Source of the DNA: a virus
DNA length: 64,000 bases
Direction: 5' to 3' (one strand)
IMG/VR virus record: IMGVR_UViG_3300045988_179014
Span: 224,001-288,000 of that record
The notes under the pieces are model-generated. The model had not been told where the DNA came from, made no database searches, and worked only from the letters and a program-made list of their open reading frames with translations. Shown in pieces: positions 4,346 to 48,276 of the stretch. The position numbers and the translations under genes are program-made. Each line of letters opens with the position of its first letter. Position 1 is the first letter of the stretch.

Positions 4346-4346
4346 A

Positions 4347-7352: not shown

Positions 7353-7439
7353 GGCGTTTCCTTTCAGAATGCAAACAGGTCATCATGCAACACAATTGTT
7401 GTGACCATACTGTGTGCGAATATCACTCACATCTCACAA

Positions 7440-8642
7440 TCAATCCACGTTTTTCAGTTTCAACAATGCTGTCAAAGTCATTTCCGCATCTGCTAAAGCT
7501 CTATGCGCTCCTGTATAGGACTGTCCTGATGCTTCCACCAATGATTTGTTGGTGTTGTCAGGTGTTTCGGGCAGGAAGAATGTACTGACCATGCGAGTGT
7601 CCAATACTTCCAGCCCATTCGCTTGTAATGCATTGAAACCGAAAAGATTGTGCTGCAACTGTCCAATTTCAAATTTGGCATTATGCGCCACCATGACAGA
7701 ATCACTCAACATGGACAACACCTTGGTTTGCTTTTCTGGGTCATTCACGAAAACTTCTTTGTCTTTAATCTCATCCCATGAAATATGATGAACATGCTCA
7801 GCACCAGTACCATGAACTTTGGCGAAGTCTTGAGGAACTCCACTCATGAATGACATGGTTTCAACACGACCATCTGGATAACGTTTGACAATACCTACTT
7901 CAATGATGTTTGAATATGGACCTTTGTCAACATATCCACTCTCTTGAGAAGCGGCAACCTCCAAATCAATTGATACCAAAGGTTTATCTGTTCTCAAAGA
8001 CATATTGGCCCACATATGACGGTATGCCTCAGTGCGGGTCATTCCAGTTGCCATCAAATCATCAACTTGTTTCTTCACGTCTTCAGTTGACATGCCTGAA
8101 TACGAGGAAATCACTTGATTCGCGTCGGCCTCGTTTTCAGATGTGATATCAGGGTGGAAATTGTAAGGACCGTTCTTCTTCTTTTGTTGCCGTTTCCAAT
8201 CCTCAAATTTTGCTTGATTCAATGCTTTCTGGTCATCTCTTCGTTGTTGCAATTGGGCTCGTTCTTCAGAAGACATGTATCTTTCAGCTTCACGTTCTTT
8301 AGCTGTAGCCAAGAAATTCAATTGTTTGGCTTTTTGCACCGTCTGGAACCAACGAACACTGGCCAGAGCTTCTGGATTACCTTCAGCGGTTTTCAGTTCG
8401 TTGGCCAGTTTCCACATATTCCTTTTTGCAGCCCGAGATTTCAGAAACAACTCCTCTATTCGTTCAGCATTTGATGTTGAGGACTTGGACATTGTGTTCA
8501 CTACTTGATTGGACATTCTACGTTCATATGCGTCACGTGCTTCAGCTATAGAGTTGTAGTGGAACTCATCAGAATATGGGCATTGTCGTTTAGCAGAGCA
8601 ACGATTTACAACACCATTTTGAGGGTTTAAATGAAATAACAT
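7440..8642 (-). CDS. N-terminal Cys/His module fused to a DEDDh 3'-5' exonuclease (DnaQ-like)
   Basis: N-terminus NRCSAKRQCPYSDEFHYNSIAEARDAYERRM; C-terminus IDLEVAAS...HNAKFE...H-x4-D exonuclease motifs. Confidence 0.6.
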   Translation of the reverse strand: MLFHLNPQNGVVNRCSAKRQCPYSDEFHYNSIAEARDAYERRMSNQVVNTMSKSSTSNAERIEELFLKSRAAKRNMWKLANELKTAEGNPEALASVRWFQTVQKAKQLNFLATAKEREAERYMSSEERAQLQQRRDDQKALNQAKFEDWKRQQKKKNGPYNFHPDITSENEADANQVISSYSGMSTEDVKKQVDDLMATGMTRTEAYRHMWANMSLRTDKPLVSIDLEVAASQESGYVDKGPYSNIIEVGIVKRYPDGRVETMSFMSGVPQDFAKVHGTGAEHVHHISWDEIKDKEVFVNDPEKQTKVLSMLSDSVMVAHNAKFEIGQLQHNLFGFNALQANGLEVLDTRMVSTFFLPETPDNTNKSLVEASGQSYTGAHRALADAEMTLTALLKLKNVD

Positions 8643-8882
8643 GCCATCCTCCTATTTCAATCTTACATAGTTTGTATCTAACGATTCAACTACTCATGAT
8701 TCTTTCAAGAAGTACAGTTAACCGTGATTCTGACTGATAGTGAAATCGTAGCACGCAAACGAGCAATGTTGACTACAAAATAATATTGCGTTTCCTATTA
8801 TGCCCAAACCATCCTGAAATGACTCCAATGAATGCGTGAATATGCAATTATATTTCGAATTATGGAAAGCACAAACCAAGCT

Positions 8883-9025
8883 CCTAGAAGTGTTTTGAGC
8901 GTGATTTTGAAGGTATCACGAAGAAGCATTTCACGTAAAACTTCTTGAAAACACGAAAAACGCCCCCGAATAGGCTTGGTAGAATCTGGGCTATTCAAGG
9001 GGCGCTACAGAAAGCGATTTTATGG
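8883..9025 (-). repeat. Copy A of a ~150-bp repeated intergenic element containing an intrinsic terminator (minus-strand orientation)
   Basis: Aligns with 53573..53725 and 58233..58390; imperfect inverted repeat CGCCCCCGAATAGG...CCTATTCAAGGGGCG, followed on the minus strand by TTTTTCGTGTTTTC. Confidence 0.6.
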
Positions 9026-9051
9026 TTTTCTCATACACTCATTTTATGGTT

Positions 9052-23119: not shown

Positions 23120-25084
23120 CTACCGCCTAACCATCGTATTGGATACATCATGGATTTCTTCATGGTCAACTGGGGTAGGGACGAACACCCCATTACGATG
23201 CAAAGAACTCTGAAAATTATACAACGCTTTCATCATCATTACCGTATCAGCTTCAGCAGCGTGTGCATCCACATATGGTACTCCATTGTCTTCTGAAAAC
23301 GACTGCAATGAGTTGTCAATAGATGTAACCATAAGATGAGATGCAATTTGTTTAGTATCCAAAATCAACAAACTACCATCATCCAACGCTTCAGCAAACC
23401 CTGGAAGATTCACTGCCAGAAACTCTTTTTCAAATGTGGCATTATGAGCTACAAGCACTGCACCATGAAGAGCGTCCCAAATAGCTGTCACATTGGCTTC
23501 ATCCTCAAATTCCGGCTTGTTTGCCACCATATCAGGAGTAATACGATGCAAAGACTCCAGTCCCACACCTACTCCATCAATCACGTCAGCACTTATCCCG
23601 TGAAGAGTAGACAGCAATGTTTCCACATTACCATCTGGAGACAAACGGACAATGGCGGTTTCCAAAATACGCCCTTTAGCAGGAGACGCTGCACTCGTTT
23701 CCAAATCAATACCAACTATAGGCTGGGTGCGGATTGACGGATTGTGCGCAGCGTACACAGATGTCAAAACTGATTGAATCTGTGTGGGGGAATAACTAGT
23801 GCCGTCTTTCTTGACTTTGGTGAAAGCATCGCGTACAACTTGATAACAATGCTCCACCGTATCCCCAGAGTATGCTGCTACTTTGTACGCCCAGTCTTTC
23901 ATATTGACACTCTTTGGGAACCCTTTATGAATCTTCTTTGCAAAACGATTCACCCCAGCCGCCAATTCCTCTTTGATGGTCTCTACTTCATGCCAGAATT
24001 CGGCTGCTGCGGTTTTCATGTGTTCCCACTCTTCAACAGCTCGTGGGTCATCCATGTTGAAGTGGTACTCGCGATAGTCATAATCATCCAAAACAGCTAC
24101 CAAAGTAACCGTTTTCAAACCAGCCAATCCCGCATACCAAATGGCTTGCTGTCGATACCCAACTGGCATTCCTGCAAAGCCATCTTCAGTGTCTCCCCAT
24201 TTAGAGCTATTGTGAACGCCTGTTTTGATTTCTACGATACCAACGGGAGTATTGGTATCATCAAGCTCTAAACCGTCAAAATTTGCATGACAGTGGGAAA
24301 ACTCGCCAGTCCCGGCCCATGAGGTTTTACAGAAAGCGATGCGTTTCCCAGAGTTCTTCATGTACATATGTCGGATAGCTTCTTCCCAAGCATTTCCCCG
24401 CCCTACAGCTGTTCGTTTGTCAAGACGGGAGTCATCATCAACAGGAAGAATGGACAATCCAACTTTCTGAAGAAGCAATGAATGATAATCTCGTGCTCCA
24501 TATTCTGGGTTGGATTTCAGGATTTTGTGGATATCTGAGCCACCAATGCCATTGTTACGCGCATGATGCCACTCAGCGCTACCAGAGACATAATCCCCTA
24601 CTGCTACCAAAGACCCAATGGTATCTTTGGTGTATGCCAGGAATGTCCCCTCCTCACGTTGTTGCTGTTCACGAATACGCGAAAAAGCTTCAGCCGCCAT
24701 AGCATTGAACGCTTTGTACTCATCAATATTTGTGTTCAGCAGCGATAACCGCTCAAACACTGAACGGTAGGGTAGCGTTGCTTCACGAATAGCAACATAT
24801 GACTTTCTTTTAGTTCCATCCTCATATGGAAGATACCCTTTTGCTCGTTTGATGTTAATGAGCAGATGTCGAAGTACTTTGTAAAAATTGCCCCTAACAT
24901 CAAGGGCGGCCTGGAATTCTGGAGTGTTACTACGTTGGAACACCCACCTCATGAGTACATCTGGGTCCTGTTTTTCCAGTAATTGGTCCAGTTCTGAAGC
25001 CGTACCCTCAGAATTGAACTCTGCTATTGACACTGGCCAATCCAAAACCTCAGAAAGGCTGTACTCAATGTCGTTGTCTGTCAT
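23120..25084 (-). CDS. Fusion protein: YqaJ-like (lambda-exonuclease-type) recombinase nuclease domain plus C-terminal DEDD 3'-5' exonuclease domain
   Basis: WHHARNNGIGGSDIHKIL (YqaJ signature) in the middle; C-terminal IVGIDLETSAAS...VAHNATFEKEFL (DEDDh). Confidence 0.5.
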   Translation of the reverse strand: MTDNDIEYSLSEVLDWPVSIAEFNSEGTASELDQLLEKQDPDVLMRWVFQRSNTPEFQAALDVRGNFYKVLRHLLINIKRAKGYLPYEDGTKRKSYVAIREATLPYRSVFERLSLLNTNIDEYKAFNAMAAEAFSRIREQQQREEGTFLAYTKDTIGSLVAVGDYVSGSAEWHHARNNGIGGSDIHKILKSNPEYGARDYHSLLLQKVGLSILPVDDDSRLDKRTAVGRGNAWEEAIRHMYMKNSGKRIAFCKTSWAGTGEFSHCHANFDGLELDDTNTPVGIVEIKTGVHNSSKWGDTEDGFAGMPVGYRQQAIWYAGLAGLKTVTLVAVLDDYDYREYHFNMDDPRAVEEWEHMKTAAAEFWHEVETIKEELAAGVNRFAKKIHKGFPKSVNMKDWAYKVAAYSGDTVEHCYQVVRDAFTKVKKDGTSYSPTQIQSVLTSVYAAHNPSIRTQPIVGIDLETSAASPAKGRILETAIVRLSPDGNVETLLSTLHGISADVIDGVGVGLESLHRITPDMVANKPEFEDEANVTAIWDALHGAVLVAHNATFEKEFLAVNLPGFAEALDDGSLLILDTKQIASHLMVTSIDNSLQSFSEDNGVPYVDAHAAEADTVMMMKALYNFQSSLHRNGVFVPTPVDHEEIHDVSNTMVRR

Positions 25085-25814: not shown

Positions 25815-26792
25815 TCAATTTGAGTATTTGTTGATAATGTTTTGTAACCTGCTGGTAGTGTTGCACAATTGTTTCCATATCACAGCTTTACCACGTTCTG
25901 AAATTGGCAGATTCAGCTTCATCATGGAATGTTTGAAAACCTCTACTACTGGAAGATACTTGATAGCTTGTTTTTTCGTTTTGTGTCTTCGTTCAGGAAT
26001 GTCATTGTTGTAAAGCCCTGTTGCGTTGTCAATGAAATCGCTTACTTTTACTAAAAATACTCCAGGATGATTTTCAATTGCTTTGGCCACGTGGTCGTGA
26101 TAACGCTTGTTCTTGACTTCTGTTGACATGCGTGATTTGTCCTGGTCTGCAATGTAATCATTTGTCACTGCATCCACCAAATGAAGAACACGAGGACCAT
26201 AAGCGTCATTGATGTGTTGACGTAATGTGTTTCGTGCTGTCAATTCATCACAATCAGTTACCCCGTGAAATTTGTCCATGAAAACTCTTGCCCCATCTTC
26301 AATTGTGTCATGAAGAACAGCAGCAACAATTACATCTTGGTCCTGTGCACCCAAACGTATCAAACGTACCGCATTACGTAGAGGATGTTCAATATAAGGC
26401 GTGGTCGCAAAGTTACCTCGATTGCCTCTGATTTGATGTGCATGCAGGATAGTAGCCAAATCTACTGACGAATCGACAATTTCAGCATTCAAGCCCAACA
26501 ATGCTGCTTCATGCCGTAATGTTTGAGCCAGTTGTGCCGCATCCAGTTTTTTCAAAGGTGTTTCACGTAACACTTGCGCTGAACGAGCACATAATTCTTC
26601 TGCACTTACACTAATTGAGGAATGGGGATGGTTTCGGGGCTTTTTTAATGTTGGAATCATTGAGTGGGCCATCATGGATTCATGGTTTTGTTTTGCAGCA
26701 TCAGCAGAATCACCATGAACCAGAGGACAATGACCTTCGCGAGCATCACAGCGAACAGATTTTCCCAATGTCTCGCTGAAATGGTACCTCAT
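25815..26792 (-). CDS. N-terminal Cys/His module fused to a RelA/SpoT-type HD hydrolase ((p)ppGpp / alarmone hydrolase-like)
   Basis: N-terminus RYHFSETLGKSVRCDAREGHCP; EHPLRNAVRLIRLGAQDQDVIVAAVLHDTIEDG matches the SpoT hydrolase HD signature. Confidence 0.6.
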   Translation of the reverse strand: MRYHFSETLGKSVRCDAREGHCPLVHGDSADAAKQNHESMMAHSMIPTLKKPRNHPHSSISVSAEELCARSAQVLRETPLKKLDAAQLAQTLRHEAALLGLNAEIVDSSVDLATILHAHQIRGNRGNFATTPYIEHPLRNAVRLIRLGAQDQDVIVAAVLHDTIEDGARVFMDKFHGVTDCDELTARNTLRQHINDAYGPRVLHLVDAVTNDYIADQDKSRMSTEVKNKRYHDHVAKAIENHPGVFLVKVSDFIDNATGLYNNDIPERRHKTKKQAIKYLPVVEVFKHSMMKLNLPISERGKAVIWKQLCNTTSRLQNIINKYSN

Positions 26793-26875: not shown

Positions 26876-27301
26876 TCACCGAATGTTTTTAAGAGAGAAT
26901 ACACACCCATTCTCTTCACGTTTACCAACTAAAATCCCTACATTGGATGCATCCCCAGTACGCCATGTTGCTGCTTGCACAGACCCTTGAAAATCTCGCG
27001 TACAAATTGGAGCCTTTCCTTCCAAAAGCTTCAGATTCGTTACATTTGTTGCAGTTTCTATTGTGGCAATAATATTCTCGTGATTATTGGTTCTGTTGTA
27101 GTGTGTGGCCAGTATGTAACATAATATTGTAGCCATCAAAACTGGAACCACTACAAGAGCTTTGGCAAGCGAATCAGTTTTCTGGGTTGCTGAAAAACTC
27201 AAATTGAAATAATGCGCGGTTATTACCATGCCAACAACAAGCACTATGATTGTTAATCCAAACGGCCATAATGACAGATGGTTAAAAGGTACTGTGGTCA
27301 T
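26876..27301 (-). CDS. Small integral membrane protein
   Basis: Two or three hydrophobic helices; preferred start MTTVPF at 27301, overlapping the upstream gene stop as ATGA. Confidence 0.4.
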   Translation of the reverse strand: MTTVPFNHLSLWPFGLTIIVLVVGMVITAHYFNLSFSATQKTDSLAKALVVVPVLMATILCYILATHYNRTNNHENIIATIETATNVTNLKLLEGKAPICTRDFQGSVQAATWRTGDASNVGILVGKREENGCVFSLKNIR

Positions 27302-27516
27302 CGTGGCATCACCATGATAGATAGATTCTTCACACTTGGTTGTCTCACACAACGTCCATACTCAGTCAAATATGTGTTAAACAATGTAGTCAGGAAATCA
27401 ACTGCCTGTTCTGGTCTCATTCTTTGTCGTCCCTTTAGAATAACAACGACTCGGACCTGCTCCTTGGCTTTCAAAAATTTCTGGGCCTGTGCCATTTTTC
27501 TATGTAAATCGTTCAA
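27298..27516 (-). CDS. Standalone translation initiation factor IF3 C-terminal-domain-like miniprotein
   Basis: DLHRKMAQAQKFLKAKEQVRVVVILKGRQRMRPEQAVDFL parallels the IF3-C pattern HD...K...A..FL..G.KVKV.V.FRGRE..H.E.G...L. Confidence 0.5.
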   Translation of the reverse strand: MNDLHRKMAQAQKFLKAKEQVRVVVILKGRQRMRPEQAVDFLTTLFNTYLTEYGRCVRQPSVKNLSIMVMPR

Positions 27517-27705
27517 CCCTATTTGAAGCGTGCATTGGATTGTTTTAATGATTTTCTCCTCTACTTGTGCTACTATAATATTGTTTCTACAGTTGTAATG
27601 TTATCATTATGCACATCTTGACAGAAACATGTCCCATACATGAATCATTCACAATAATAATTCAATACCATCTTTTATCTAGCAGTTTTCTTCTCATGTC
27701 TTACT

Positions 27706-28749: not shown

Positions 28750-29397
28750 ATGACTGGATTCAACGAGATATACATTTCTGTGGACATTGAAGCAACGGGG
28801 CCGATTCCTGGTCTTTACTCCATGTCATCTATTGGTGCCTTTACAGCCGGCGCAAGAACCTGTGATGGAACATTTGTACATTTCGACCATACAGAGACCA
28901 ATAATGTTTTCTATGCTGAGTTACAGCCAATCTCTGAGCATTATATTCCTGATGCTATAAATGTGGGTATTTTGGACGGATTTGACAATAGTAGACCAGA
29001 TATGGACGGTTCACGACATTTTCAGTGGATGAAAGAACATGGAGACGACCCAGCTGATGTTATGTCTGGTTTTGTCACATGGGTGATTGAACAAGAAAAA
29101 CACTACAAAGCTCCATCTGTTTTCATGGCTTATCCAGCATCATTTGACTGGACTTTCGTGTATTGGTACATGATTCGATTTGGAGTCGAATCGCCTTTCG
29201 GTTTTTCCCGAGTACTGGATTTGAAAACATTGTTCGCAGCCAAGTCGCACAAACCAATCAGAAAGAGTATAAAACGGTACATGCCAAAAAGTTTGTTCCC
29301 AAAGCTGCTGCATACTCACAGAGCTGACGATGACGCCATTGAGCAAGGTGTGTTAGGCATCAATCTGCTTCAGTGGGACGGGAAACAGCCATCATGA
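28750..29397 (+). CDS. DEDD-family 3'-5' exonuclease (oligoribonuclease/KapD-like)
   Basis: YISVDIEATGP motif I at the N-terminus. Confidence 0.5.
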   Translation: MTGFNEIYISVDIEATGPIPGLYSMSSIGAFTAGARTCDGTFVHFDHTETNNVFYAELQPISEHYIPDAINVGILDGFDNSRPDMDGSRHFQWMKEHGDDPADVMSGFVTWVIEQEKHYKAPSVFMAYPASFDWTFVYWYMIRFGVESPFGFSRVLDLKTLFAAKSHKPIRKSIKRYMPKSLFPKLLHTHRADDDAIEQGVLGINLLQWDGKQPS

Positions 29398-29452
29398 CCA
29401 TAAACGACGACAAAAGCCAATAACCTTGAATGTATCAGTGTGTAATGTTTCA

Positions 29453-30016
29453 TTATGGATACACAATGACAGAGGTGACAAAGCTCCAAGGAACATACTG
29501 GGTTAGAATCACATCATTCAAGGTTTTGTAAAACTTCAATCCTGCTGCTTGCATTGCATTACCATCAATGCTCAGTACAACAGGTATGCTCTTATGTTGA
29601 CGGGCAGCAGATAATGCTATTTTCTCATCTGATGACAAATGCACAAACAGTCGTGAACCAGGAACAATACCCCATTCACGGATAGTGCCTACTTTTGATG
29701 CTGTGGTGCCATGATAAATAGTTCCAGGATTGTCAACTGAATCTAATTCTATGGTTATTGGAATAGAATGTCCTTCAGTAGCCCAAACACGACCATTAAC
29801 AACAGCATAATGACCACTGCTATCTTCATCAACAATTTTATGAATCATGCTTTCAGAAGTGTTCAATGCTTTGGCTAAATCTGTAACTTCAACTGAACCA
29901 TCCTGGTGCATATCAACTTGATACTGTTCAGGAGCATGACATAGGGCCTGATTCATTTGTTGGGACAATTCAGTCAATTCCATGTCTCTCCTCAATTCCT
30001 CGATATCATTGTTCAA
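29453..30016 (-). CDS. kptA: RNA 2'-phosphotransferase Tpt1/KptA
   Basis: 187 aa; IYHGTTASKVGTIREWGIVPGSRLFVHLS matches the Tpt1 R-HGT-R-VHL signature. Confidence 0.6.
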   Translation of the reverse strand: MNNDIEELRRDMELTELSQQMNQALCHAPEQYQVDMHQDGSVEVTDLAKALNTSESMIHKIVDEDSSGHYAVVNGRVWATEGHSIPITIELDSVDNPGTIYHGTTASKVGTIREWGIVPGSRLFVHLSSDEKIALSAARQHKSIPVVLSIDGNAMQAAGLKFYKTLNDVILTQYVPWSFVTSVIVYP

Positions 30017-35592: not shown

Positions 35593-36693
35593 TCAGACTG
35601 TCCATAATCTGTCAAAACGGTCAGGTCCATATGATTCAATTGCTACTGGACCCAACATATTTGGTTTCACAGGTCCATTGTTGGTCATGATGTTGGAAAA
35701 TTGGTCCAACCAGCTTATGGCAAGATACGTTGGTTTTACACGTTCTATTGACCATTCCAGCATGTTTTGGTCCCAAAGTCCAGTACGAAAAGCACCGGCC
35801 CATTCAGATGTTCCATTGTGTGGTTCTGGTACTGTTACATGATTCTCATAAGGCATTGGACCTGCACCATGACGGGTAGCATATGTTCTCAAACAACCAT
35901 ATACTGTCACATCCTCCACACCAGCTTGTCGCAACATTGTTCTGGCATTACTTGGGGTAGTAGTGCTCCAGGTGTTGTGAGGTGGTTGACCAAAGTTTTC
36001 ATCCAAAAGAAACCCTTGAGCGCCTTCAAACACAGTATGCCCCACAGTGAGTTCATTCAGAAAATGGTCATTGTCCACCACTTTGAAAACCTGACTAAAT
36101 GCATCCATCATAGTACGAGCCATTGCAAGATAGGTTCCAGGTTCTTGCTCTTCCAATCCCATGTTCTGACCATAAAATTGGAGAAAATCCAGGATTGTAT
36201 CTATTGAGAACATGTCTTTTGCACGTAAAGGAGTATTTCCATGGTATTCCCAAGCAACCGTTTCCCCAAAACCTGTGCCAGTGGAGCCATGACGTGCTTC
36301 TCCTCTGGCTTTTTCCCGAGCATGATTCACAAACACATGTAAAGGAGTAGTCACTTTCGTAAGTTCTGACACATGAATAAAGCGGGTATCTGTTGTCAAA
36401 ACTGGTTTCAATGCTGTTTGTTCTTGCAATGCTGACAATGGGTCAATAGTGCAATATTCTGAAATCCATGTTGGAACTTGTGAAAATGTCCCAGACCCGT
36501 AACTGGAAAAAGTGTGTGACAGTTTTCCAACTTGTACATTGTGTGCAGCTTGTTGTCCCCCATTGAAGCGCACCACTCTTTTGGCTTTGTGACGATGTGC
36601 CAGGTAATCAGTTGTTGCGCCTTTGCATTCATCACCCCAGCCCAGACCCACCACAATGTCAGCAGTGGGTCGGGATGGATTTTTGAAAGTCAT
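35593..36693 (-). CDS. Adenylosuccinate synthetase homolog (PurA-like; short form, possibly PurZ-like)
   Basis: N-terminus IVVGLGWGDECKGATTDYL parallels the PurA P-loop VVVGxQWGDEGKGK; 366 aa versus about 430 for canonical PurA. Confidence 0.6.
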   Translation of the reverse strand: MTFKNPSRPTADIVVGLGWGDECKGATTDYLAHRHKAKRVVRFNGGQQAAHNVQVGKLSHTFSSYGSGTFSQVPTWISEYCTIDPLSALQEQTALKPVLTTDTRFIHVSELTKVTTPLHVFVNHAREKARGEARHGSTGTGFGETVAWEYHGNTPLRAKDMFSIDTILDFLQFYGQNMGLEEQEPGTYLAMARTMMDAFSQVFKVVDNDHFLNELTVGHTVFEGAQGFLLDENFGQPPHNTWSTTTPSNARTMLRQAGVEDVTVYGCLRTYATRHGAGPMPYENHVTVPEPHNGTSEWAGAFRTGLWDQNMLEWSIERVKPTYLAISWLDQFSNIMTNNGPVKPNMLGPVAIESYGPDRFDRLWTV

Positions 36694-37634
36694 CGTAACA
36701 CCTTTGGACCAGCATCGTTTTTACGTGCTAAAGTCTTCCCAACTCGAAGTGCTATTTCTTTACCTGCTGTTTCAGTTAAATCTCGTTCGATAGTGGTACG
36801 GTCGGTTCCTTCCGCGAAACCAACAACTGCGGCAATGGTTTCTGCAATGTTGTTGGGGTCTTCCACAATCAACACTTGCTTTTCTCCAAACAAATTGGCA
36901 TAGAATTCATGTGACCGTTGGAATCGTGCAGCTGAATTGTCAATTAGTAGTACCCATACATGCCATTTCTCAGTTACGGCTTTGGCAATTGATTCATTGC
37001 TCAAATCATCCAACAATGGCTGTTTGTCCCCAATGACTTCACGTACATGGTCTTTGTCGATAGGCACTTGTTTCTCATCTGCTATCAAAAACAAATGTCC
37101 TTTGTGTTTCCGTTTTTCCCAGGAATCTGTCTCGGTGTGAGTTGCTGCATAGTAAAGGAGAAGATTGCTGGTTTCACCATTGTTTCCTCCACCACCACCT
37201 TCTAGGAACATGTTGTCCAAGGCATCATCTACTCGGTTGTCAGATTCGAATTGACCAAACTGTAATGGGACTGAATCGCAATGTGCATCACCATACGTGG
37301 CTACTGCAACTTGTGGGTCCTTGGCGTATCCTTTATCCACCAATAGTTTGAATACTGTTCCCAGTTTTTGTTGCATCACTCTTGGGACAGACCCCATGGA
37401 ACCGGTAGAATCAAATGCAACAATGATGGGAAGGGAATTGGGATGTTCTTTTGAGTCTCGTGATTCTCTAACGTTCAACCCTACTTTGTTCAACTTTTTG
37501 GGGGTCAAATCCTCATGAGCCTTGTACACTCCGGAACTACGAACTGACCGGTCGTAACCAAACGTTGCACCAGTACGAATTTTGCTACTTGTAACACCTG
37601 AATATGTAGCAGCACTCCAAACTCCTCCACCCAT
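36690..37634 (-). CDS. von Willebrand factor A domain protein (TerY-like)
   Basis: MIDAS motif DSTGSMG near the N-terminus; Ter-cluster context. Confidence 0.55.
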   Translation of the reverse strand: MGGGVWSAATYSGVTSSKIRTGATFGYDRSVRSSGVYKAHEDLTPKKLNKVGLNVRESRDSKEHPNSLPIIVAFDSTGSMGSVPRVMQQKLGTVFKLLVDKGYAKDPQVAVATYGDAHCDSVPLQFGQFESDNRVDDALDNMFLEGGGGGNNGETSNLLLYYAATHTETDSWEKRKHKGHLFLIADEKQVPIDKDHVREVIGDKQPLLDDLSNESIAKAVTEKWHVWVLLIDNSAARFQRSHEFYANLFGEKQVLIVEDPNNIAETIAAVVGFAEGTDRTTIERDLTETAGKEIALRVGKTLARKNDAGPKVLR

Positions 37635-37736
37635 GATGACACTCTCCTTGGTCTAGTGGTGAACAGCTATGCGTTAAATATCAGTTTGACCCTTAACACT
37701 GTCATTGTACCAATTTGAACCCGAAAATAACTTATG

Positions 37737-38579
37737 TCAAATGCCTTTAGAAGGTGGAGCAGGAAGAGGGTGCCATTTCGACCCACCAAAATCCTTCTTC
37801 AACGCTGCTTCCCCACGATGAACCGCTTTCTCCACAGGTATTGGACGAAGGCGCATCTCATACAAAAACTTCCCCAACGCTGGCGAAGTTTTTCCAGATT
37901 CCAGCAATAAAGCAGCACTCTGGGACACAGACAGTTCAGTATCAGTTGGATTCCCTGAAAGATATCTTGGCAAGGTGAACGCATATGGAGAAACTTCCAA
38001 TGATGCACCAAGAGGAACAGCAGTCCACCATCCATCCAGTCGTAAACCATGCTCAGAAGGAAGAAGCGCTACTGTATTGGCATTGATGTCTCCATGAACC
38101 CAACCCTCCTGTGCTGCCAAATGAATCACTGTCAGCAGTCGACGCCAAATCCAAGCAATCGTTCTCTCGTCCAATTGTTCGAATGCACTTAGTAACCACC
38201 ATCCAGGCCCGTAACGGCTCTCCAGGGTTAGTTTGTTTCGATGTGGCTCCGGAACCCACTGCACCGGCTCAGAAGACTTCCAGAGGGCATTCTGTGCCTT
38301 CTCAGCCCTATCCAACAAATCCGAGTTCACTGCATCAAAAGACCAATAGATGCTTCCACCGCCAAACTTGCCTGTGGCCAATCGAAGACTCACATCTGGC
38401 GCATGGAACAATGATTCCAATTTTGTAAAAGCAAGATTGGCCTGAGGGTGTTTGCACACATCCGGATGAACTCGAACTTGTGCTTTCCTAAGACCTGTTT
38501 TATCGTGCTCCAACCCCAATTGGTCCCAACTGGTAGCATTGAGAACAATATTTACAAAAGCATCCATGGAAAACTCCAT
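37737..38579 (-). CDS. Protein-kinase-like / phosphotransferase-fold protein with J-domain-like N-terminus
   Basis: VHGDINANTV resembles the kinase catalytic loop HGDLxxxN; the N-terminal LRKAQVRVHPDVCK contains an HPD-like motif. Confidence 0.35.
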   Translation of the reverse strand: MEFSMDAFVNIVLNATSWDQLGLEHDKTGLRKAQVRVHPDVCKHPQANLAFTKLESLFHAPDVSLRLATGKFGGGSIYWSFDAVNSDLLDRAEKAQNALWKSSEPVQWVPEPHRNKLTLESRYGPGWWLLSAFEQLDERTIAWIWRRLLTVIHLAAQEGWVHGDINANTVALLPSEHGLRLDGWWTAVPLGASLEVSPYAFTLPRYLSGNPTDTELSVSQSAALLLESGKTSPALGKFLYEMRLRPIPVEKAVHRGEAALKKDFGGSKWHPLPAPPSKGI

Positions 38580-38618
38580 CTGTTTACAATATTACAAATG
38601 ACAATTACATGATGCCAA

Positions 38619-39488
38619 TTATTGCATGTTTCCATGTTGATTGTTTTGAACAGTTTTCGCAAAATTGGTCCATAACGTTTGAGGGTCGTTGTCGCTCAAA
38701 CCTGACATGCAACCATCATTCAATTCAACCACAGCCCAGCTACCATCAGGGTATTCAGCCATGTCAATCACATAGAACCGCGCCAAGTGTTTTGTCCGGT
38801 CAATTGCATCCATTAAAGCTGTCATGTATTTCGTAAAATCAAGTGGCTGTACACCACTGTATTCAACATGATTGCTCCAATAGAACCCTTCAGAAAGAAT
38901 TCGTCCATCAAGAACAAACACACGTCTTTCATGAAAAATCGGCCTTGAATCCACTGCTTTCCCCAATAGCCGAAAATGCTGAAATGGACGAATCACAATA
39001 CGTTGACTCCCCACATATGTATCACTGAGAACATTGTTGATAATCCTCAGCAAATCATGTTTAGTCTCCGCATAAGCAGCATCAAACCATTTGTTCTTTA
39101 TGGAATTGGTCTCTCCCTTGACAAAATATTCTCCTTCAGGGAGTTTCGGAATATCTTCTATAGAATAGGCTTTCGCTGTCAACCCATCCAAAAGATGGAC
39201 CCATGCAAACAAATCAGCAATGTTTCTATGTTGACTATAACTGTTGACCAGATGACTTCCCAGTAATTGAACCTCTTTGTCCAACTCTGGCCCGAAAGGA
39301 ATTGCTCGGAAACGCGGAATCACCAATGACCCAGCGGGAATTTGGCTGACCATGGTTCCCATATGAGTTCCAAACACTTCTCGGGCAGCATCCAACTCAT
39401 CAGATTCCAAAATGCCTATTTGTGAATCAGAATAAAAATAGTATGGTTGCAGCATTATTTCCCCTTGATATTGTTCGCCAAATCTCAT
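38619..39488 (-). CDS. ATP-grasp family ligase (Ter-associated biosynthetic module)
   Basis: RRVFVLDGRIL...VIDMAEYPDGSWAVVELNDG, typical ATP-grasp C-terminal core. Confidence 0.45.
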   Translation of the reverse strand: MRFGEQYQGEIMLQPYYFYSDSQIGILESDELDAAREVFGTHMGTMVSQIPAGSLVIPRFRAIPFGPELDKEVQLLGSHLVNSYSQHRNIADLFAWVHLLDGLTAKAYSIEDIPKLPEGEYFVKGETNSIKNKWFDAAYAETKHDLLRIINNVLSDTYVGSQRIVIRPFQHFRLLGKAVDSRPIFHERRVFVLDGRILSEGFYWSNHVEYSGVQPLDFTKYMTALMDAIDRTKHLARFYVIDMAEYPDGSWAVVELNDGCMSGLSDNDPQTLWTNFAKTVQNNQHGNMQ

Positions 39489-39509
39489 TATGGGTATGAT
39501 GATGCTAAT

Positions 39510-39731
39510 TTATGGAAGAGTTGACCAAATTTCTTTGCAGGTCGGGCAAATAGGAAATTCCTTGTAATCTCCGAAAGGTACCCACTTTTTACCACACAAC
39601 GCGGTAGCCGGAATACCATCAAAAATGGCACGCTCCAGCTCATCTTTTCTCACATAATGGGCGAACTTATCGTGATTCCCATCATCATTCACAAGTTGCT
39701 TTTCTTCAACCAGCTCATCCAAAACAGTCAT
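39510..39731 (-). CDS. Small Cys-containing protein (DUF3039-like?)
   Basis: CGKKWVPFGDYKEFPICPTC motif. Confidence 0.35.
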   Translation of the reverse strand: MTVLDELVEEKQLVNDDGNHDKFAHYVRKDELERAIFDGIPATALCGKKWVPFGDYKEFPICPTCKEIWSTLP

Positions 39732-39987
39732 TCATACTCCTATCAATCAAAACCTTGAATCCATGATAACACTCCTTCACCACTTGAACAAGTTTGAAGT
39801 TGTCACCAATCAACAGCACTAGATAAACTCATTCCCCCGACCGAACCTGTTACAAGGCAAACACAATTGAATCCTCCTTCATGTATCTTGTGTTTTTGTT
39901 GAGATTATCAGAACAGGAGTGTGGATTGTTTTAACAAAATAGTTCCAAGCATGTGTTATTATGTTAGCTTCTCTATTATGTTATTCA

Positions 39988-40785
39988 TCAACAAACAACA
40001 TGGTCTCGAACAGTGCGCACAATTTCTACTGAAGCTGCCGAACCTTTTTCACAAGTGCGTTTCATGTTGCCAGCATTGTTTCCTTGATTCACGCCATGAA
40101 ACGGAACAATGAACTCAGCAACTTCATCAGCCATGGACAAATCCAGAATACTGTCTCCAGCAGCAAAACTATAACCATAGCCAAAACGAGCAATGATTTC
40201 GGCTACTGCACGTCCTTTACTGATTGGACGAGGAATCAAATAATGTTTTCTTCCTTGTCGTGAATACATTTGATTGTAGTCTTCAGCCATTGCAGCAATC
40301 ATTGTTTCCAGTTTTTGATGATATCCTAACTCAGTGACTACATATGCGAAAAACCCATCAGCATCATGAACTGCTCTGACCCCATCCAATGTGGAAAAAG
40401 TTTTCACAACTTGCTGCAAAACCTGACTTGGAGAATATTCTTCCTGTAGCACCAAGTCTTGCATCATTCGGGTCCAGTTCATGTCTTCCTGTCCATCAAT
40501 TAGTATTTTTGCACCATTGAGAATGATTGCACAATTGTATTGAATCTGCGGGAATTGGATTCTTTGGAATTGACGCATGGTTCGTGTGGTTGTTGGAATG
40601 AAATCAAAAACCTTGGCAGCATGGTCATGTAGAATCTGATATGTTTCCCAGGCCATATAACCTACTGGGGAATTATTACGTTCCTCAACCACCACATGAC
40701 CAGTTGTTTTCTGTCCATGTGAATACAACCCCCGCTGTGAAAAGACAAGAGTATCATCCAAATCAGAGAACAAAACAGTTTTCAT
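39988..40785 (-). CDS. HAD-superfamily phosphatase (Ter-associated)
   Basis: Motif I LFSDLDDTLVFS at the N-terminus. Confidence 0.55.
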   Translation of the reverse strand: MKTVLFSDLDDTLVFSQRGLYSHGQKTTGHVVVEERNNSPVGYMAWETYQILHDHAAKVFDFIPTTTRTMRQFQRIQFPQIQYNCAIILNGAKILIDGQEDMNWTRMMQDLVLQEEYSPSQVLQQVVKTFSTLDGVRAVHDADGFFAYVVTELGYHQKLETMIAAMAEDYNQMYSRQGRKHYLIPRPISKGRAVAEIIARFGYGYSFAAGDSILDLSMADEVAEFIVPFHGVNQGNNAGNMKRTCEKGSAASVEIVRTVRDHVVC

Positions 40786-41945
40786 ATTGCTGCCATTCCG
40801 GTGTGTCCAATGGCTCCACGACTGTATTGAGGATGAATTAAACCAACACAGGCATACGGCAAATCAGACTTTTCCTCCACAGGCACATTTCGTTGATGTG
40901 CCAAAAGTAGAACATGGGTCAATGCGGTTTTGTCTTCAGGTCGTATGAGAATCCGCCATGGTACTCGTCGCAATAAAACTCTCGTTGTCTCCCCTACCCC
41001 AGGTTTCACCAAGTTGACATCATGAATACCATATTCCTCACTGATTTGTTCCACCATGGTCCACCCCATCCAAGACGGTTCATCATATTCGTGAACTCTC
41101 AAAGCCTCATCCACAACATCAAACAATTCAGAACCAAAATGTTCAATTACAGCATCAATGAAATACTGTGACACATCCATAGCAGCAAATTTACGATAAA
41201 ACTTGGCTCCATGGTAATCATTAGGCCCAATACTGTGATTCAAAACAGTACGTGAAATCAAACCCGACACAGTAGAGTTCAAACATGCTGATGGAATCAG
41301 ATAATCCTCCCTGGTCCCATAAACACGAACGCAAGAACCAGGGTCCGCCAGAACTGCCAACTCACTGTTGAAAACAACGCCTTCCTGTTCTGCAAAAAGT
41401 TTCAACGCTTGTGAAAGTTCCTTCGTTATGGCTCCTTTACCCGTCCATCCATCAATGAAAACAACACAGTCAGGGTTGTGATGTTTTGCAATATAGCGCA
41501 ACGCATTGAAATCGATACCTTTTCCTCGAACAATACTGACCGCATAGTGTGGAACCTGTATCTGATAACGCTGCTCCAAATAACGTTTGACCAGAATTCC
41601 AACAGGTGTCCCCGCACGAGCCAACGACACCAGAACCGGATTCCCGCCTCGCAGAAACCGAACCTGTTCAGCTACCATGCCAACCGCTTTCGCCAGTTTC
41701 TCACTGTTTTGGGCAAGAGATGAAAAGAACAATTGAACATACTCGTCAGATGGTACATATTCCACAGGCAAGGATTCAGCATAGTGTGCTCTACCTGATT
41801 GTATTGCTTCTTCCCGTTCCTCAACTGATGCTTCCAGTTTGCTTCTGGACAAATCTTTCAACAACCAAGCAACATCATCAAAACAGTATGAACCGAACTG
41901 AGGGCCATGCAAAGGTTTCGGTAATATAACATCTTCTGGAATCAT
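40782..41945 (-). CDS. Ter-cluster-associated protein, possibly divergent PRTase-like
   Basis: CVVFIDGWTGKGAI weakly resembles a PRTase nucleotide-binding loop; gene overlaps both neighbours, so likely in an operon. Confidence 0.3.
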   Translation of the reverse strand: MIPEDVILPKPLHGPQFGSYCFDDVAWLLKDLSRSKLEASVEEREEAIQSGRAHYAESLPVEYVPSDEYVQLFFSSLAQNSEKLAKAVGMVAEQVRFLRGGNPVLVSLARAGTPVGILVKRYLEQRYQIQVPHYAVSIVRGKGIDFNALRYIAKHHNPDCVVFIDGWTGKGAITKELSQALKLFAEQEGVVFNSELAVLADPGSCVRVYGTREDYLIPSACLNSTVSGLISRTVLNHSIGPNDYHGAKFYRKFAAMDVSQYFIDAVIEHFGSELFDVVDEALRVHEYDEPSWMGWTMVEQISEEYGIHDVNLVKPGVGETTRVLLRRVPWRILIRPEDKTALTHVLLLAHQRNVPVEEKSDLPYACVGLIHPQYSRGAIGHTGMAAI

Positions 41946-43267
41946 ATGGATTGTCCTTCCGTCATTGTCAAAACTGTTATAGTACTGGTTCGCCCTTGAA
42001 ATGCTCTCAACAATGGTTCAATACTGTAATGCCCTATTTGACTGTGAACAGGTATGACAATATGGTCATAATCCCAACCAATGTTGTAAGCATAACGTTT
42101 CACATTGTCACATTCCAACAAATAACGAATCCGGTCTTTGATAGCATAATCATCCCTGTCAGCGCTGAGAACCGGCGACCTTGTGGTAGACGAAAAATTG
42201 ACATCATATCCGTCTGTTTCCAATGAAGAAGCCAACAGGAAAGGCAGGAACATGTCTTCCTCTATTCCCAATACCAGAACCTTCTCATCAGGACACACAG
42301 CGGTTTTCTGTTTCCATTCATCAACCAAATGAAACAAATTCCAGAAATCATCATTCTGCACACCTTGTGAAAGAGGTTTGTATCCACTATTGGTGACTTC
42401 ATGTCTATATACTGTAGTTTTGCGTTTAGTTTTTACAGGTTCAGGTAATTGTTTCAACTGATTCAACAAAGGTTGCGCTTTTTTCACTGAATCATTCGGA
42501 ACATTCAACTCCATGGAAAGCAATGAAACAACAGTGATTTGAATACCCAGATTGTGTGCAAACTGTTTGAAAACCTTGTGTGCTTTTTGAGTTCTTAAAT
42601 CCGTGAGTGTGGCAATATAATAATGAGTGTGATGCTGATGTGATTCAAACAGTTCAATGGTGTTCATAACTGTGTTCCCTGTGGTCAGTTCATCATCCAC
42701 CAAAACAATGATTCGTTCAGGTTCATCCAATATGTTTGTTGTTTCTGGTGTGATGTGATGAGAACTGGCATGAGAATGGGACTCTTCAAAACTGCCATAA
42801 TCTTGATACTCACTGATGGGGTAACGGGTGGAATGAATATAACTTGCTCTCAGATGTGATGCCACCAGTGCGCCCAAATTGGTGGCAGTTTCAGCATAAC
42901 CAAACACAGTTATTGGTGTTGACAGTTTGTGCAATAATGGTAAAGATGAGTAATGGCTCTTCAACGCTTTTTGCATCATATGAGCGGATTCCAGCTGTAG
43001 CATGAGTGAATCCACAGTGGGCGATGTGTGGTGGGCCTGTATCTGCCATGCCAGTTCTGCGGCTGCATGATTGATTATACTTGGTTTCTGCGGAACATGT
43101 TTCCCCAGAAGATTGGACACCAACAAATGTGCTCTTTTCGGGTTTTTACGTAATGCCATACCCAGAAATGACTGAAAAGCTTGAAATTGTGTAGTGTTTT
43201 TGGGTCTAATGTTCAAAGCATTGCTGACAAAATCACCAGACCATGTGTTGTGTAGTGTTTCAGTCAT
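41942..43267 (-). CDS. Phosphoribosyltransferase (type I PRTase domain with N-terminal extension)
   Basis: RIIVLVDDELTTGNTV is the canonical PRPP-binding motif. Confidence 0.6.
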   Translation of the reverse strand: MTETLHNTWSGDFVSNALNIRPKNTTQFQAFQSFLGMALRKNPKRAHLLVSNLLGKHVPQKPSIINHAAAELAWQIQAHHTSPTVDSLMLQLESAHMMQKALKSHYSSLPLLHKLSTPITVFGYAETATNLGALVASHLRASYIHSTRYPISEYQDYGSFEESHSHASSHHITPETTNILDEPERIIVLVDDELTTGNTVMNTIELFESHQHHTHYYIATLTDLRTQKAHKVFKQFAHNLGIQITVVSLLSMELNVPNDSVKKAQPLLNQLKQLPEPVKTKRKTTVYRHEVTNSGYKPLSQGVQNDDFWNLFHLVDEWKQKTAVCPDEKVLVLGIEEDMFLPFLLASSLETDGYDVNFSSTTRSPVLSADRDDYAIKDRIRYLLECDNVKRYAYNIGWDYDHIVIPVHSQIGHYSIEPLLRAFQGRTSTITVLTMTEGQSI

Positions 43268-43270
43268 TGA

Positions 43271-44443
43271 TTACACCATATATTGTTCCAGGAAATCAGC
43301 AAAACCCACATGTTCACGACTTACTCCAAACATTCGGGCACGGGATTGAATGTTTCGCGCCCAAGCAGTGTGTGGTTTGACTTCATTCATTTTGTTTCCA
43401 TATGTGGAAGCCATGACACCACCATTGTCGTCCCTGCTCAAAATGTCCATGGCATCAACATACTCTTCATGTGAAACAACCATCAGAGAATGAACAATGC
43501 CAACATGACTGGGGTGAATGACTGTTTTTCCTGTTATCCCGTTCAACTTGTCCAATTGTACTTCGCGAATGAAAGTGTCATTGCCTTCTGTCACCAGTTT
43601 TGCACGCAGGGTTTTGTCATGGGCAAAAATGCTTTCACACAACAATGGTTTGAAAGTACGTTCAGAAGGCGCAAAATGTTCCCAGACCGCGCCAGTGATG
43701 ACACGATTGTCTTCTGCTCGTCCCAACATGTTCACAATGTCCGAAATGGCAGAAGCAACAACATGGACATCATAAACAGTGAATTCTCGGGACCGGCGCA
43801 ACCCATACGCAGAAGACATGTCAGTGGCTCCAATACGTACTGCCAATAAAGAATCCATTGAATGGGCCAGAATACGTTGCACATGGGAGAGAGTGTAGTG
43901 ACGGGTGTCCTGATGAATAATCCGAGGCGACTCAATCACTGGCATGTAATACAAGCTGGTCGTAGCAGTTCTGTTGTAACACTGCAACACATCCACAAAT
44001 GCTTGACCACGAGACAAATCATCAAACTTGGGAAAAACAAAGCCAGTCAAACTTGATAGCAATATACCGTTTTGTTCAATAATGTGTTCTAAATGTTCAG
44101 GTGAGCGAACACGTACAAACAACAATGGCAAATCAGAATTACCAATTGCTGCTAATTTGCGTAATAATTCATACAAATTGTGCTCTGCTTCTTTCACCTT
44201 CTCGTCTGGTATCGAATCCTCCAAACAGAGAACCACCGAAGTGGTATCGTTCTGATAGGCTTTTTTCAAATCCTCTAACAAATCAGAACGTGTGGCAGGC
44301 ATATACAATGTTGCTCCCAAAGAATAACTGAGCAATTTTTTATCAGTATATTGGTTGAATCTTTCCGGGAGGCGATAGAATAAATCTTTTTCAGCTGGAG
44401 TGTTACGTAAAAAATTGAAATGTCTCACAATCAGTCCTATCAC
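43271..44443 (-). CDS. HpcH/HpaI aldolase / citrate-lyase beta-like TIM-barrel C-C lyase (Ter-associated)
   Basis: Size, position in the PRTase / HAD / ATP-grasp operon, and overall pattern; assignment is tentative. Confidence 0.4.
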   Translation of the reverse strand: MIGLIVRHFNFLRNTPAEKDLFYRLPERFNQYTDKKLLSYSLGATLYMPATRSDLLEDLKKAYQNDTTSVVLCLEDSIPDEKVKEAEHNLYELLRKLAAIGNSDLPLLFVRVRSPEHLEHIIEQNGILLSSLTGFVFPKFDDLSRGQAFVDVLQCYNRTATTSLYYMPVIESPRIIHQDTRHYTLSHVQRILAHSMDSLLAVRIGATDMSSAYGLRRSREFTVYDVHVVASAISDIVNMLGRAEDNRVITGAVWEHFAPSERTFKPLLCESIFAHDKTLRAKLVTEGNDTFIREVQLDKLNGITGKTVIHPSHVGIVHSLMVVSHEEYVDAMDILSRDDNGGVMASTYGNKMNEVKPHTAWARNIQSRARMFGVSREHVGFADFLEQYMV

Positions 44444-45180
44444 AAATGTGCGAAAAATGCTTGCACGCTATTGTCGTTATTGTCAGTGTTGATAGTTGAT
44501 GTTTCTTGTGCTGGTCTGTCCGTTATTCTAAAAGTTGCGTGAACACTGTGCCGAAACTGTTCTTGTCTCAATTCCAGTGCTGAATTAACTGTTGAAATGT
44601 AAAGAACTTGGTTGGGGCGATAATTCATTGAAACAGTTGGACTCTTAATTGTCCCCAATTTCAGGCTTGTGTCGTCTTTGGGAGCTATTACCATTCGGCG
44701 TAGTTGTTTGTAGTGCCGTAAAGACATCACCAGTGCACCTTTGTGAAATTCGATTAATGGACGATTACCGAATCTGGGTGGTTCACGTTCCGGTAATGAA
44801 GCTTGTATTCTCAGTTCGCCTGTAACGGCATCAACAACATTGGAGGGTGGTGGAGTAACCCCAGGAGCGTATAAGAACCCTGAGGCCCCATTCTGAGCCT
44901 CCCAGGCCACATAAGCAACCCCAGTTACCACCAGTGAACCAATAGCAGTTTGCCGTGTATTGAAACGCACCACTGGATGGTCACAGTCAAACACCCAATC
45001 ATGTTTCAATACAGGTACTTCATAACCAATTGAGACAGTAGTGTTTTCTTCAGAATCGTTTTTGGAAACAAGTTGGATTGAAGTTGATACCGATGGTGGC
45101 GAAGTTACCAGCTCTCCTGTTCGTAATCGTCTACGTATGTAGGTAATGAATGGTTTGGGGTCACGTAAATTTACACTCAT
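44440..45180 (-). CDS. Hypothetical protein in the Ter cluster
   Basis: ORF overlapping its neighbours (operon). Confidence 0.35.
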   Translation of the reverse strand: MSVNLRDPKPFITYIRRRLRTGELVTSPPSVSTSIQLVSKNDSEENTTVSIGYEVPVLKHDWVFDCDHPVVRFNTRQTAIGSLVVTGVAYVAWEAQNGASGFLYAPGVTPPPSNVVDAVTGELRIQASLPEREPPRFGNRPLIEFHKGALVMSLRHYKQLRRMVIAPKDDTSLKLGTIKSPTVSMNYRPNQVLYISTVNSALELRQEQFRHSVHATFRITDRPAQETSTINTDNNDNSVQAFFAHL

Positions 45181-45731
45181 TACAGAGACACCTTAAAATC
45201 ATTGGCCACTTGAACAATACCACCAGCATATCCTTGACCCACCGCACGGAACTTCCACTCAGTATTACGACGATAAATTTCCCCCATGAGAACTGCATTG
45301 ATGTCCGATGAGGATTGGGGCAACTCAAAACGAACCAATTCAGAAAGCGCACGGTCCATTATCCGCATATGAGCATGACGAACTGCACCAAAATTACCGG
45401 GATTACGAACTTCCGGGTCCACATATAGGAGAAAAACCATTTTGGACACATTTTCTGGCACTGCTGACAACGTTATTTCGATTTGGTCATTGTCTTCATT
45501 CCCTTCAACGTACTGAACAGTTCCATCAGTTGTTGACAATTGGTTGAAAAACAGAAAATGCTCATCACTCAAAGCGTGACCATTTTCCCCCACAAGAATA
45601 ACGGCTGGAACGATTTGCAGTTGTGGTCCTGAACCTTGAATTGTGTTCCACCCAAACCCAACCACCAAATCATTCAGTAAAGGGTTTTCTCGTGTGATGG
45701 ATACATTCGCGCCAGGTTGCAATGAGGCCAT
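45180..45731 (-). CDS. terD: TerD-family stress protein
   Basis: TerD-domain similarity to the two downstream paralogs (GWN...GENG, NFGAVRHAHMRI). Confidence 0.7.
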   Translation of the reverse strand: MASLQPGANVSITRENPLLNDLVVGFGWNTIQGSGPQLQIVPAVILVGENGHALSDEHFLFFNQLSTTDGTVQYVEGNEDNDQIEITLSAVPENVSKMVFLLYVDPEVRNPGNFGAVRHAHMRIMDRALSELVRFELPQSSSDINAVLMGEIYRRNTEWKFRAVGQGYAGGIVQVANDFKVSL

Positions 45732-45794
45732 AGTATCTCCTTATTCTAACGATTAACCTAATAATAGCACGAAACATATAATATGGCACATACA

Positions 45795-46268: not shown

Positions 46269-46324
46269 GCCTTACCAGAAAAGGAGGGGCGAACATGAAC
46301 CACCCCTCCTCATCTCAAATAGAT

Positions 46325-47554: not shown

Positions 47555-47654
47555 ATGAATTCCTTTTGATTCTATGGATTTTTATGCTGAAACGGATAGG
47601 GTGGAATTGGTTTTGCTTCCTTCCCACCCCATCCGCTTTGATTATTCATCACAA

Positions 47655-48236: not shown

Positions 48237-48276
48237 GATTTTTCCTTTCGTATTTGATGTTATTGTTTAATCTATA

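Follow-up and report, generated by a model that had tools for sequence, protein, structure and literature searches.

Bacterial translation initiation factor IF3 is the closest described relative of the protein considered here. Its C-terminal domain (CTD) attaches to the 30S subunit close to the P site, prevents the 50S subunit from joining too early and aids start-codon selection (PMC8266586). The CTD alone performs most IF3 functions and sustains the growth of E. coli, and the N-domain is needed for full fidelity, initiation at AUU being increased when the N-domain is crippled (PMC9723500). The IF3 gene, infC, starts with AUU or AUC in all bacteria and this codon is the target of IF3 autoregulation (PMC5499595). 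Among phages, IF3 genes have been described both from huge phages (PMC7162821) and from jumbo phages of group 2.2 (PMC7824862). Phage-encoded full-length IF3 is thus already known; we found no description of a standalone phage IF3 C-domain in the literature searched. Here we describe such a gene on a 64,000 nt stretch of viral DNA (positions 224,001 to 288,000 of the IMG/VR record IMGVR_UViG_3300045988_179014; this whole stretch is called the window and all coordinates refer to it). The gene lies on the minus strand at 27298..27549, most likely starts with AUU and is the first of three conserved genes. What is new compared to the known phage genes is the CTD-only architecture, the conserved AUU start and the conserved operon. 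We regard it as probable that the gene provides a minimal phage IF3-CTD whose synthesis from an AUU codon responds to IF3 activity, within a three-gene module that would sustain initiation.

The similarity of the 83-residue product, (M)KTIQCTLQIGLNDLHRKMAQAQKFLKAKEQVRVVVILKGRQRMRPEQAVDFLTTLFNTYLTEYGRCVRQPSVKNLSIMVMPR, to the IF3 CTD is apparent at the level of both sequence and predicted fold. The Pfam profile IF3_C (PF00707) matches the miniprotein over positions 3-81 of 86 with an E-value of 9.5e-13 (48.3 bits against a gathering threshold of 34.8). The best match of a phmmer search of the PDB is the IF3 CTD 2m71 (E 4e-6), and six of the seven PDB matches are IF3 CTDs. Aligning the miniprotein family to 29 full-length IF3s with hhalign yields a 99.9% probability across the C-domain. 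Four columns that are invariant in the CTD of full-length IF3s (D, F, G and R) are retained as D14, F25, G40 and R41, as are the GR(E/Q) loop and the overall positive charge; with an isoelectric point of 10.5 and a net charge of +10 the miniprotein is even more basic than the E. coli IF3 CTD (9.85 and +6). An AlphaFold2 model built from a 25-sequence alignment has a mean predicted local distance difference test score (pLDDT) of 94.4 and the β-α-β-α-β-β topology of IF3-C, the predicted elements being E-H-E-H-H-E-E. In a Foldseek search of the PDB, the top 18 matches are all CTDs of IF3 or mitochondrial IF3. They include 2m71 (template modelling (TM) score 0.87, root-mean-square deviation 1.9 Å), 1tig (TM 0.82) and the ribosome-bound CTDs 5lmn_X (TM 0.84) and 9fco_J. 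The folds of SepF, YhbY and SpoVS were also considered and rejected, as they reach TM scores of only 0.43-0.54. A first-pass annotation of this DNA had suggested a resemblance to the IF3 CTD, and the profile match above gathering together with the confidently predicted fold bears this out: judged by sequence and model, the ORF (open reading frame) at 27298..27549 is an IF3 C-terminal domain.

The same annotation had proposed that the N-domain and linker are missing, which also holds. A hidden Markov model (HMM) built from 59 full-length IF3s was run with filters off against all six-frame stop-to-stop segments of at least 40 aa in the window. It gave a single match, at 27301..27600 on the minus strand, covering HMM positions 84-166 of 172. 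With this model neither IF3_N (PF05198) nor the Lys-rich linker is encoded in any frame of the 64 kb. We relied on the HMM because a tblastn search with an E. coli IF3 query missed even the true locus. The infC-rpmI-rplT context is likewise absent: the downstream neighbours are genes for a membrane protein and a hydrolase with an HD_4 domain, and upstream lies a gene for a 264-aa protein with no assigned function. The frame is closed upstream by three consecutive in-frame stops, TAA, TGA and TAA (27601..27609, minus strand). None of them is TAG, so the amber-suppressor tRNA encoded in the window cannot extend the ORF, and an upstream extension by amber suppression can be excluded.

Compared with bacterial IF3, the window protein thus has the same profile, predicted fold, D/F/GR(E/Q) columns and strong basicity, and the gene has a proposed AUU start behind a Shine–Dalgarno sequence (SD) as in bacterial infC. 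It differs by the lack of the N-domain, of the Lys-rich linker and of the infC-rpmI-rplT context, and by a score below the infC equivalog cutoff. The AUU of bacterial infC stands at the start of the N-domain while that of the window gene stands at the start of the CTD, so this feature must have newly evolved or been re-created after truncation. Full-length phage IF3s are also phage-borne IF3 homologues, presumed to redirect or support initiation in the host (PMC7162821, PMC7824862). Those that we looked at, from the Cronobacter phage GAP32 (gp313; Mimasvirus), XbC2 and the huge phages LR756501 and LR756504, are 168-183 aa long, have an N-domain and start with ATG. With their IF3_N, linker and IF3_C they contrast with the CTD-only window protein, which has an AUU start and belongs to a different operon. 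In accordance, PHROG 9787 matches the window protein (E 1.7e-6) only at positions 85-157 of 168, and its structural matches in BFVD are only phage IF3s of 172-173 aa.

Two further comparisons are instructive. The E. coli infC-delta55 strain lives on the IF3 CTD alone (PMC9723500, its reference 24), and the window gene would be its natural counterpart. The infC-delta55 construct, however, replaces the host IF3 and entails slow growth and reduced fidelity, while the phage protein would act beside an intact host IF3; moreover, the window protein is only ~20-30% identical to bacterial CTDs. The second comparison is with standalone IF3_C miniproteins in metagenomes (P0051/P0024 and P0060), which also consist of a single domain, of 80-110 aa. 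The P0051/P0060 subfamily is nevertheless distinct, with ~35% identity, canonical ATG or TTG starts and unrelated neighbourhoods (RecX/Bax1-I in one case, SMC_N/ParA in the other). Some metagenomic IF3_C miniproteins have been labelled 'translation initiation factor IF-3' by the Joint Genome Institute (JGI); none has been characterised. As a separate observation, a putative phage scaffold from human faeces (MT835497.1, 'Bacteriophage sp.', our L025) encodes a high-GC, full-length IF3 in the stop-to-stop ORF 1240..1869. No canonical start precedes its N-domain, and a GGAG followed after 5 nt by ATC forms an infC-type start.

The first-pass annotation had listed the gene as a 72-codon ORF starting at TTG 27516 (27298..27516, minus strand). 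This ORF exists as described, with its TGA stop inside an ATGA overlap with the next gene, but its start and extent had to be revised. The frame is open for 35 more codons upstream, as far as the TAA-TGA-TAA at 27601..27609. The 11 codons directly 5′ of the TTG encode IKTIQCTLQIG, the first β-strand of the domain, so that the 72-codon reading is truncated at its N-terminus. The Pfam IF3_C match requires these codons, and no in-frame ATG, GTG or TTG lies between the upstream stops and the first β-strand. The likeliest gene is therefore 27298..27549 (83 codons plus TGA), starting at the non-canonical ATT at 27547..27549, 33 nt upstream of the TTG. Between the Shine–Dalgarno sequence GAGGAG (27561..27556), read directly from the sequence, and the first β-strand the only plausible initiators are this ATT (27549) and an ATC (27552; 27550..27552), which we consider less likely. 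The ATT is located 6 nt past the GGAG core, which is canonical SD spacing. Two overlapping σ70-like promoter matches lie just 5′ of the SD (27572..27604, minus strand), with 9 of 12 hexamer positions matched in each. They provide weak promoter evidence, at the level of consensus only, the region containing 9 such sites compared to 4.8 ± 2.5 in shuffled sequences. Folding of the 5′ leader RNA was no better than that of shuffles (z = −0.21).

Comparison with related contigs (labelled L001 onwards) supports this assignment. Five close haplotypes were compared, namely the window, L001-4, L018, L019 and L020. The GAGGAG is invariant among them and a 1-nt indel occurs immediately 5′ of it, so the reading frame is not preserved upstream of the SD. 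Synonymous changes affect codons for Arg (AGA/CGG/AGG) and Lys (AAA/AAG) in the segment from the TTG to the internal ATG, and others (ACG/ACT, CTT/CTC) lie upstream of the TTG, indicating that coding extends upstream of both canonical start candidates. In L020 the TTG of the window is replaced by TCG, which cannot serve as a start there. On a wider scale we examined the DNA of the window group, L007/L021 (contigs of 109 kb and 727,571 bp), L008, L009-11, L012, L013 and L014. In all seven of these readable lineages a GGAG-type motif is followed after 5-7 nt by ATT (ATC in L012). Five of the seven (the window group, L009-11, L012, L013 and L014) have no in-frame ATG, GTG or TTG upstream of the IKT(I/V)Q strand, and in L009 and L013 the frame upstream of the strand is open for only 3-4 codons. 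In L007/L021 and L008 the called start is an ATG (L007) or TTG (L008) located a few codons further 5′ and devoid of an SD; these lineages nonetheless carry GAGGAG or GGAG, 6 nt and ATT. Finally, no SD combined with an ATT, ATC, ATA or CTG start was detected among the 92 other long ORFs of the window, so this feature is specific to the gene and not a habit of the genome. Initiation most likely takes place at the AUU at 27549; we infer that this codon is used in vivo and renders expression sensitive to IF3.

A shorter product, 72 aa long if started at TTG 27516 or 65 aa if started at ATG 27495 (Met19), would be a domain lacking its first β-strand, and we think it very improbable. These two codons are indeed the only canonical starts, and in five of the seven lineages the public gene calls, 65-85 aa long, begin at a conserved internal Met or Val, including the equivalent ATG. 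The truncated calls are themselves explained by the non-canonical start. No SD is suitably spaced from either codon, and the TTG is lost in L020, as mentioned above. The 11-18 upstream codons show synonymous changes while their amino acid sequence is conserved, and they would form the first strand of the predicted sheet, which is also included in those relatives whose called start lies further upstream.

The ORF itself is well conserved. Among the five close haplotypes 23 codons vary, 15 of them in a purely synonymous manner, a pattern indicating that purifying selection acts on the gene among close relatives. A HMMER search run exhaustively over 1.84 billion representatives returned 46 relatives, most of them 65-118 aa long, and in a profile search of a 5.8-billion-protein set about 25 short IF3_C-only clusters rank ahead of the full-length IF3s. 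The closest lineages are 53-65% identical to the window protein and L013 is ~35% identical; an in-frame IKT(I/V)Q, the first β-strand, is present in every lineage examined. Megablast of the 25-30 kb part of the window against GenBank phages gave no match, and IMG/VR scans with the miniprotein and with the clade alignment gave no relatives. A scan of GTDB genomes gave one weak match (33% over residues 1-42) in a Lachnospiraceae metagenome-assembled genome, which provides no clue to the host.

The first-pass annotation had also considered that the ORF might be a pseudogene fragment, in other words what is left of a full-length infC that was acquired from a host and is now in decay. The missing N-domain and linker would fit such an origin, as would a premature stop in one relative: in L019 (4000-4252, contig coverage ~2.9x) codon 70 of the IF3-C gene is changed from CAA to TAA, which reflects a sequencing error or else a naturally inactivated gene. 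Decay is hard to reconcile with the excess of synonymous changes, with the conservation of the SD/start context and of the operon, or with the presence of the same standalone architecture in at least seven lineages, one of them on the 727-kb contig. We thus reject a pseudogene as scarcely credible; by all these features of sequence the miniprotein gene is a functional one.

The gene is not alone. Its stop codon, TGA (27300..27298), shares bases with the start codon, ATG (27301..27299), of the second gene, forming an ATGA at 27298..27301 on the minus strand. This stop/start overlap with a small membrane protein had been pointed out in the first-pass annotation and can be read directly in the DNA. 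The second gene (26876..27301, minus strand) encodes a 141-aa protein with two predicted N-terminal helices, which have the hydrophobic make-up of transmembrane segments, and a C-terminal β domain of ~55 aa. In this family the C-terminal domain contains two invariant Cys, one invariant Trp and an invariant Gly, within the motifs C..(D/E)(Y/F)(Q/E)GS..A..W and G.L.G....C. No family match was obtained in Pfam, PHROGs or NCBIfam, and its AlphaFold2 model is of low confidence (pLDDT 58.7), the alignment search having returned only near-identical homologues. The tight linkage is nevertheless maintained: in six lineages the IF3-C gene is immediately followed by that of a homologue of 140-162 aa (21-28% identity), with an overlap or a 3-7 nt gap (L001, L007, L008, L009, L010 and L012).

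Beyond this pair we found a third conserved member, judging from the gene order, an HD_4 hydrolase of 325 aa resembling RelA/SpoT hydrolases and MESH1 (25815..26792, minus strand). Its HD_4 domain (PF13328) scores 31.9 bits against a threshold of 27.2 (E 1.4e-7). The spoT_relA profile TIGR00691 gives an E-value of 4e-12 and 45 bits, far under its 499-bit cutoff because only the hydrolase part is present, and the PDB matches are Rel hydrolase domains and MESH1. The HD metal-binding motif H..LHD(T/V)(I/V)EDG is kept in four orthologues. Orthologues of 320-336 aa, 44-45% identical, follow the IF3-C gene in L007, L009 and L013. The likeness to the RelA/SpoT hydrolase domain and to MESH1 makes the protein a candidate small alarmone hydrolase, whose substrate would be (p)ppGpp or (p)ppApp. 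Across relatives, including the 727-kb contig, the genes keep the order IF3-C, membrane protein, HD_4 protein; in L013 the IF3-C gene is directly followed by the HD protein, without the membrane protein, and in L014 both partners are absent. Ahead of the HD domain, the HD_4 proteins of the window, L007, L009 and L013 share an N-terminal motif, YHF..tG....C.A....CP..HG.S...A..N(Y/H)E. No family could be assigned to this motif, which may constitute a small Cys/His element for metal binding or targeting.

Put together, these observations lead to the following proposal. The 83-residue basic protein would occupy the IF3-CTD site on the 30S subunit of the host and supply a minimal IF3 activity, keeping subunits apart and supporting the formation of 30S initiation complexes. 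Since IF3 activity discriminates against AUU starts, the output of the gene should go up when IF3 activity goes down, so that the amount of miniprotein would rise as IF3 activity in the infected cell falls, following the logic of bacterial infC autoregulation. By means of the stop/start overlap it would be co-expressed with the membrane protein, and then with the RelA/SpoT-type HD hydrolase. The module could plausibly keep initiation running during infection against a shutdown based on the stringent response or on alarmones.

Besides the premature stop in L019, several points weigh against this proposal. The score of the miniprotein with the infC equivalog model of NCBIfam (TIGR00168) is only 25 bits, compared to a cutoff of 60. 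In a hand alignment to the E. coli IF3 sequence, four arginines are replaced in the miniprotein (R99 by T, R112 by A, R129 by I and R147 by T), two are changed to lysine (R116 and R131) and one, R133, is kept. In E. coli these residues are implicated in 30S binding; the same positions are also variable among genuine IF3s, for example in C. jejuni 2m71. That the gene is constantly paired with those of a membrane protein and a hydrolase might indicate that the fold has acquired a different role. Lastly, AUU initiation in vivo is increased in E. coli that has only the CTD (PMC9723500), so the product may not repress its own AUU, which would favour a positive feedback.

The pairing and the protein scores raise the question of whether the IF3-C fold has been repurposed to work off the ribosome, as a subunit or regulator of the membrane-protein/HD-hydrolase module, for instance an RNA- or nucleotide-binding adaptor. 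The adjacency of the three genes, with a stop/start overlap, across lineages that are only 21-65% identical can be understood in this way, and so can the replacement, in the hand alignment, of several 30S-contact arginines and the score under the equivalog cutoff. The miniprotein keeps the columns typical of IF3-C and its strongly positive charge, however, and the closest structural neighbours are ribosome-bound IF3 CTDs, with SepF and YhbY far behind. In addition, the IF3-C gene persists in L013 and L014, where the membrane-protein gene is missing, and a role unconnected with IF3 activity could hardly account for an AUU start. Taken together, we find a function off the ribosome rather improbable.

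The main alternative to a supportive minimal IF3 is a dominant-negative role. The miniprotein might outcompete host IF3 at the 30S subunit and, having no N-domain to proofread the start codon and the initiator tRNA, relax the fidelity of initiation. Non-canonical starts, including its own AUU, would be favoured, resulting in self-amplifying expression and in translation reprogrammed to phage messages. Both E. coli with the CTD only and N-domain mutants indeed show more initiation at AUU and AUA and more use of a 3GC-mutant initiator tRNA (PMC9723500), and the absence of the N-domain and the proposed AUU start of the gene are in line with such an effect. On the other hand, none of the 92 other long ORFs of the window combines an SD with a non-canonical start, so no set of genes that would benefit is visible in the window. 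In vitro work summarised in PMC9723500 assigns fidelity functions to the CTD too, and a successful competition would demand high expression from a weak start codon. A relaxation of fidelity thus seems unlikely to us. A doubtful but coherent extension would combine it with the IF3-sensitive start: a drop of host IF3 activity would let the miniprotein accumulate, displace IF3 and lock the cell in a relaxed-fidelity mode of initiation favouring the phage, while the alarmone hydrolase would lift the brakes exerted by (p)ppGpp or (p)ppApp. The competition at the 30S platform and the altered fidelity of initiation that the first-pass annotation had envisaged for a free IF3-C mimic are conjectural.

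The existence of such a gene is of interest in several respects. The sufficiency of the IF3 CTD alone and the contribution of the N-domain are still debated (PMC9723500), and a naturally evolved, conserved CTD-only IF3 would represent direct evolutionary evidence on this question as well as a ready reagent to address it. The recurrence of AUU on a gene lacking the original 5′ end of infC suggests selection for IF3-sensitive expression outside bacterial infC, and offers a testable case of a virus that reads and adjusts the initiation-factor status of its host. The conserved association with a hydrolase of Rel/SpoT type suggests a phage module that targets translation initiation during stress or defence responses. 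There is also a lesson for annotation, as a non-canonical start gives rise to truncated public gene calls.

The window is probably the accessory region of a very large (huge) phage genome. No capsid or terminase gene was seen in it, so that 'phage' stands as a well-supported inference; the closest relatives in the databases, with 24-31% protein identity, are phage contigs from the human gut and Lak megaphages. The only phage-database matches of the window come from a 1062-aa protein (60779..63967, minus strand) that combines a T5orf172 (GIY-YIG-like) domain with a ResIII/SNF2 helicase and is ~30% identical to proteins of human-gut phage contigs and 24% to those of Lak megaphages. The suppressor tRNA mentioned above, with anticodon CUA, lies at 2577..2649 on the minus strand, far from the IF3-C gene. 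It is labelled tRNA-Pyl by ARAGORN and is the only match at Rfam gathering level in the window (tRNA, 54 bits, 2579..2649). Of 58 long ORFs in the window, 2 end with TAG, 36 with TGA and 20 with TAA; together with the CUA tRNA this scarcity of TAG suggests TAG avoidance, or recoding of the stop codon elsewhere in the genome.

The remaining gene content is rich in functions related to stress and to RNA. A complete Ter-type stress/biosynthetic cluster is present on this phage-like element (35593..50000, minus strand), comprising an adenylosuccinate-synthetase-like protein (PHROG 1211), a VWA-like protein, StiP+PELOTA, PRTase_2+TRSP, a C-C bond lyase, three TerD paralogues, TelA and a membrane protein (PHROG 30252). 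The window also has a dense group of genes for RNA repair and NAD/ADP-ribose functions, spread over 2703..15966, 28750..30016 and 50767..51570. On the RNA side it contains a polynucleotide kinase (14812..15966), a Tpt1/KptA RNA 2′-phosphotransferase (29453..30016) and RNase_T exonucleases (7440..8642 and 28750..29397). The NAD/ADP-ribose genes encode an NAPRTase (5212..6507), a NUDIX hydrolase (2703..3482), an ADP-ribosylglycohydrolase (9052..10095), two tandem ADP-ribosyltransferase paralogues (10466..12940) and an ART-PolyVal protein (50767..51570). The window further encodes the small subunit of a ribonucleotide reductase. Next to the three-gene module, a 654-aa protein encoded at 23120..25084 (minus strand) fuses a YqaJ-like recombination exonuclease to a C-terminal DEDDh (RNase_T) domain, and its gene is found beside the module in L001 as well.

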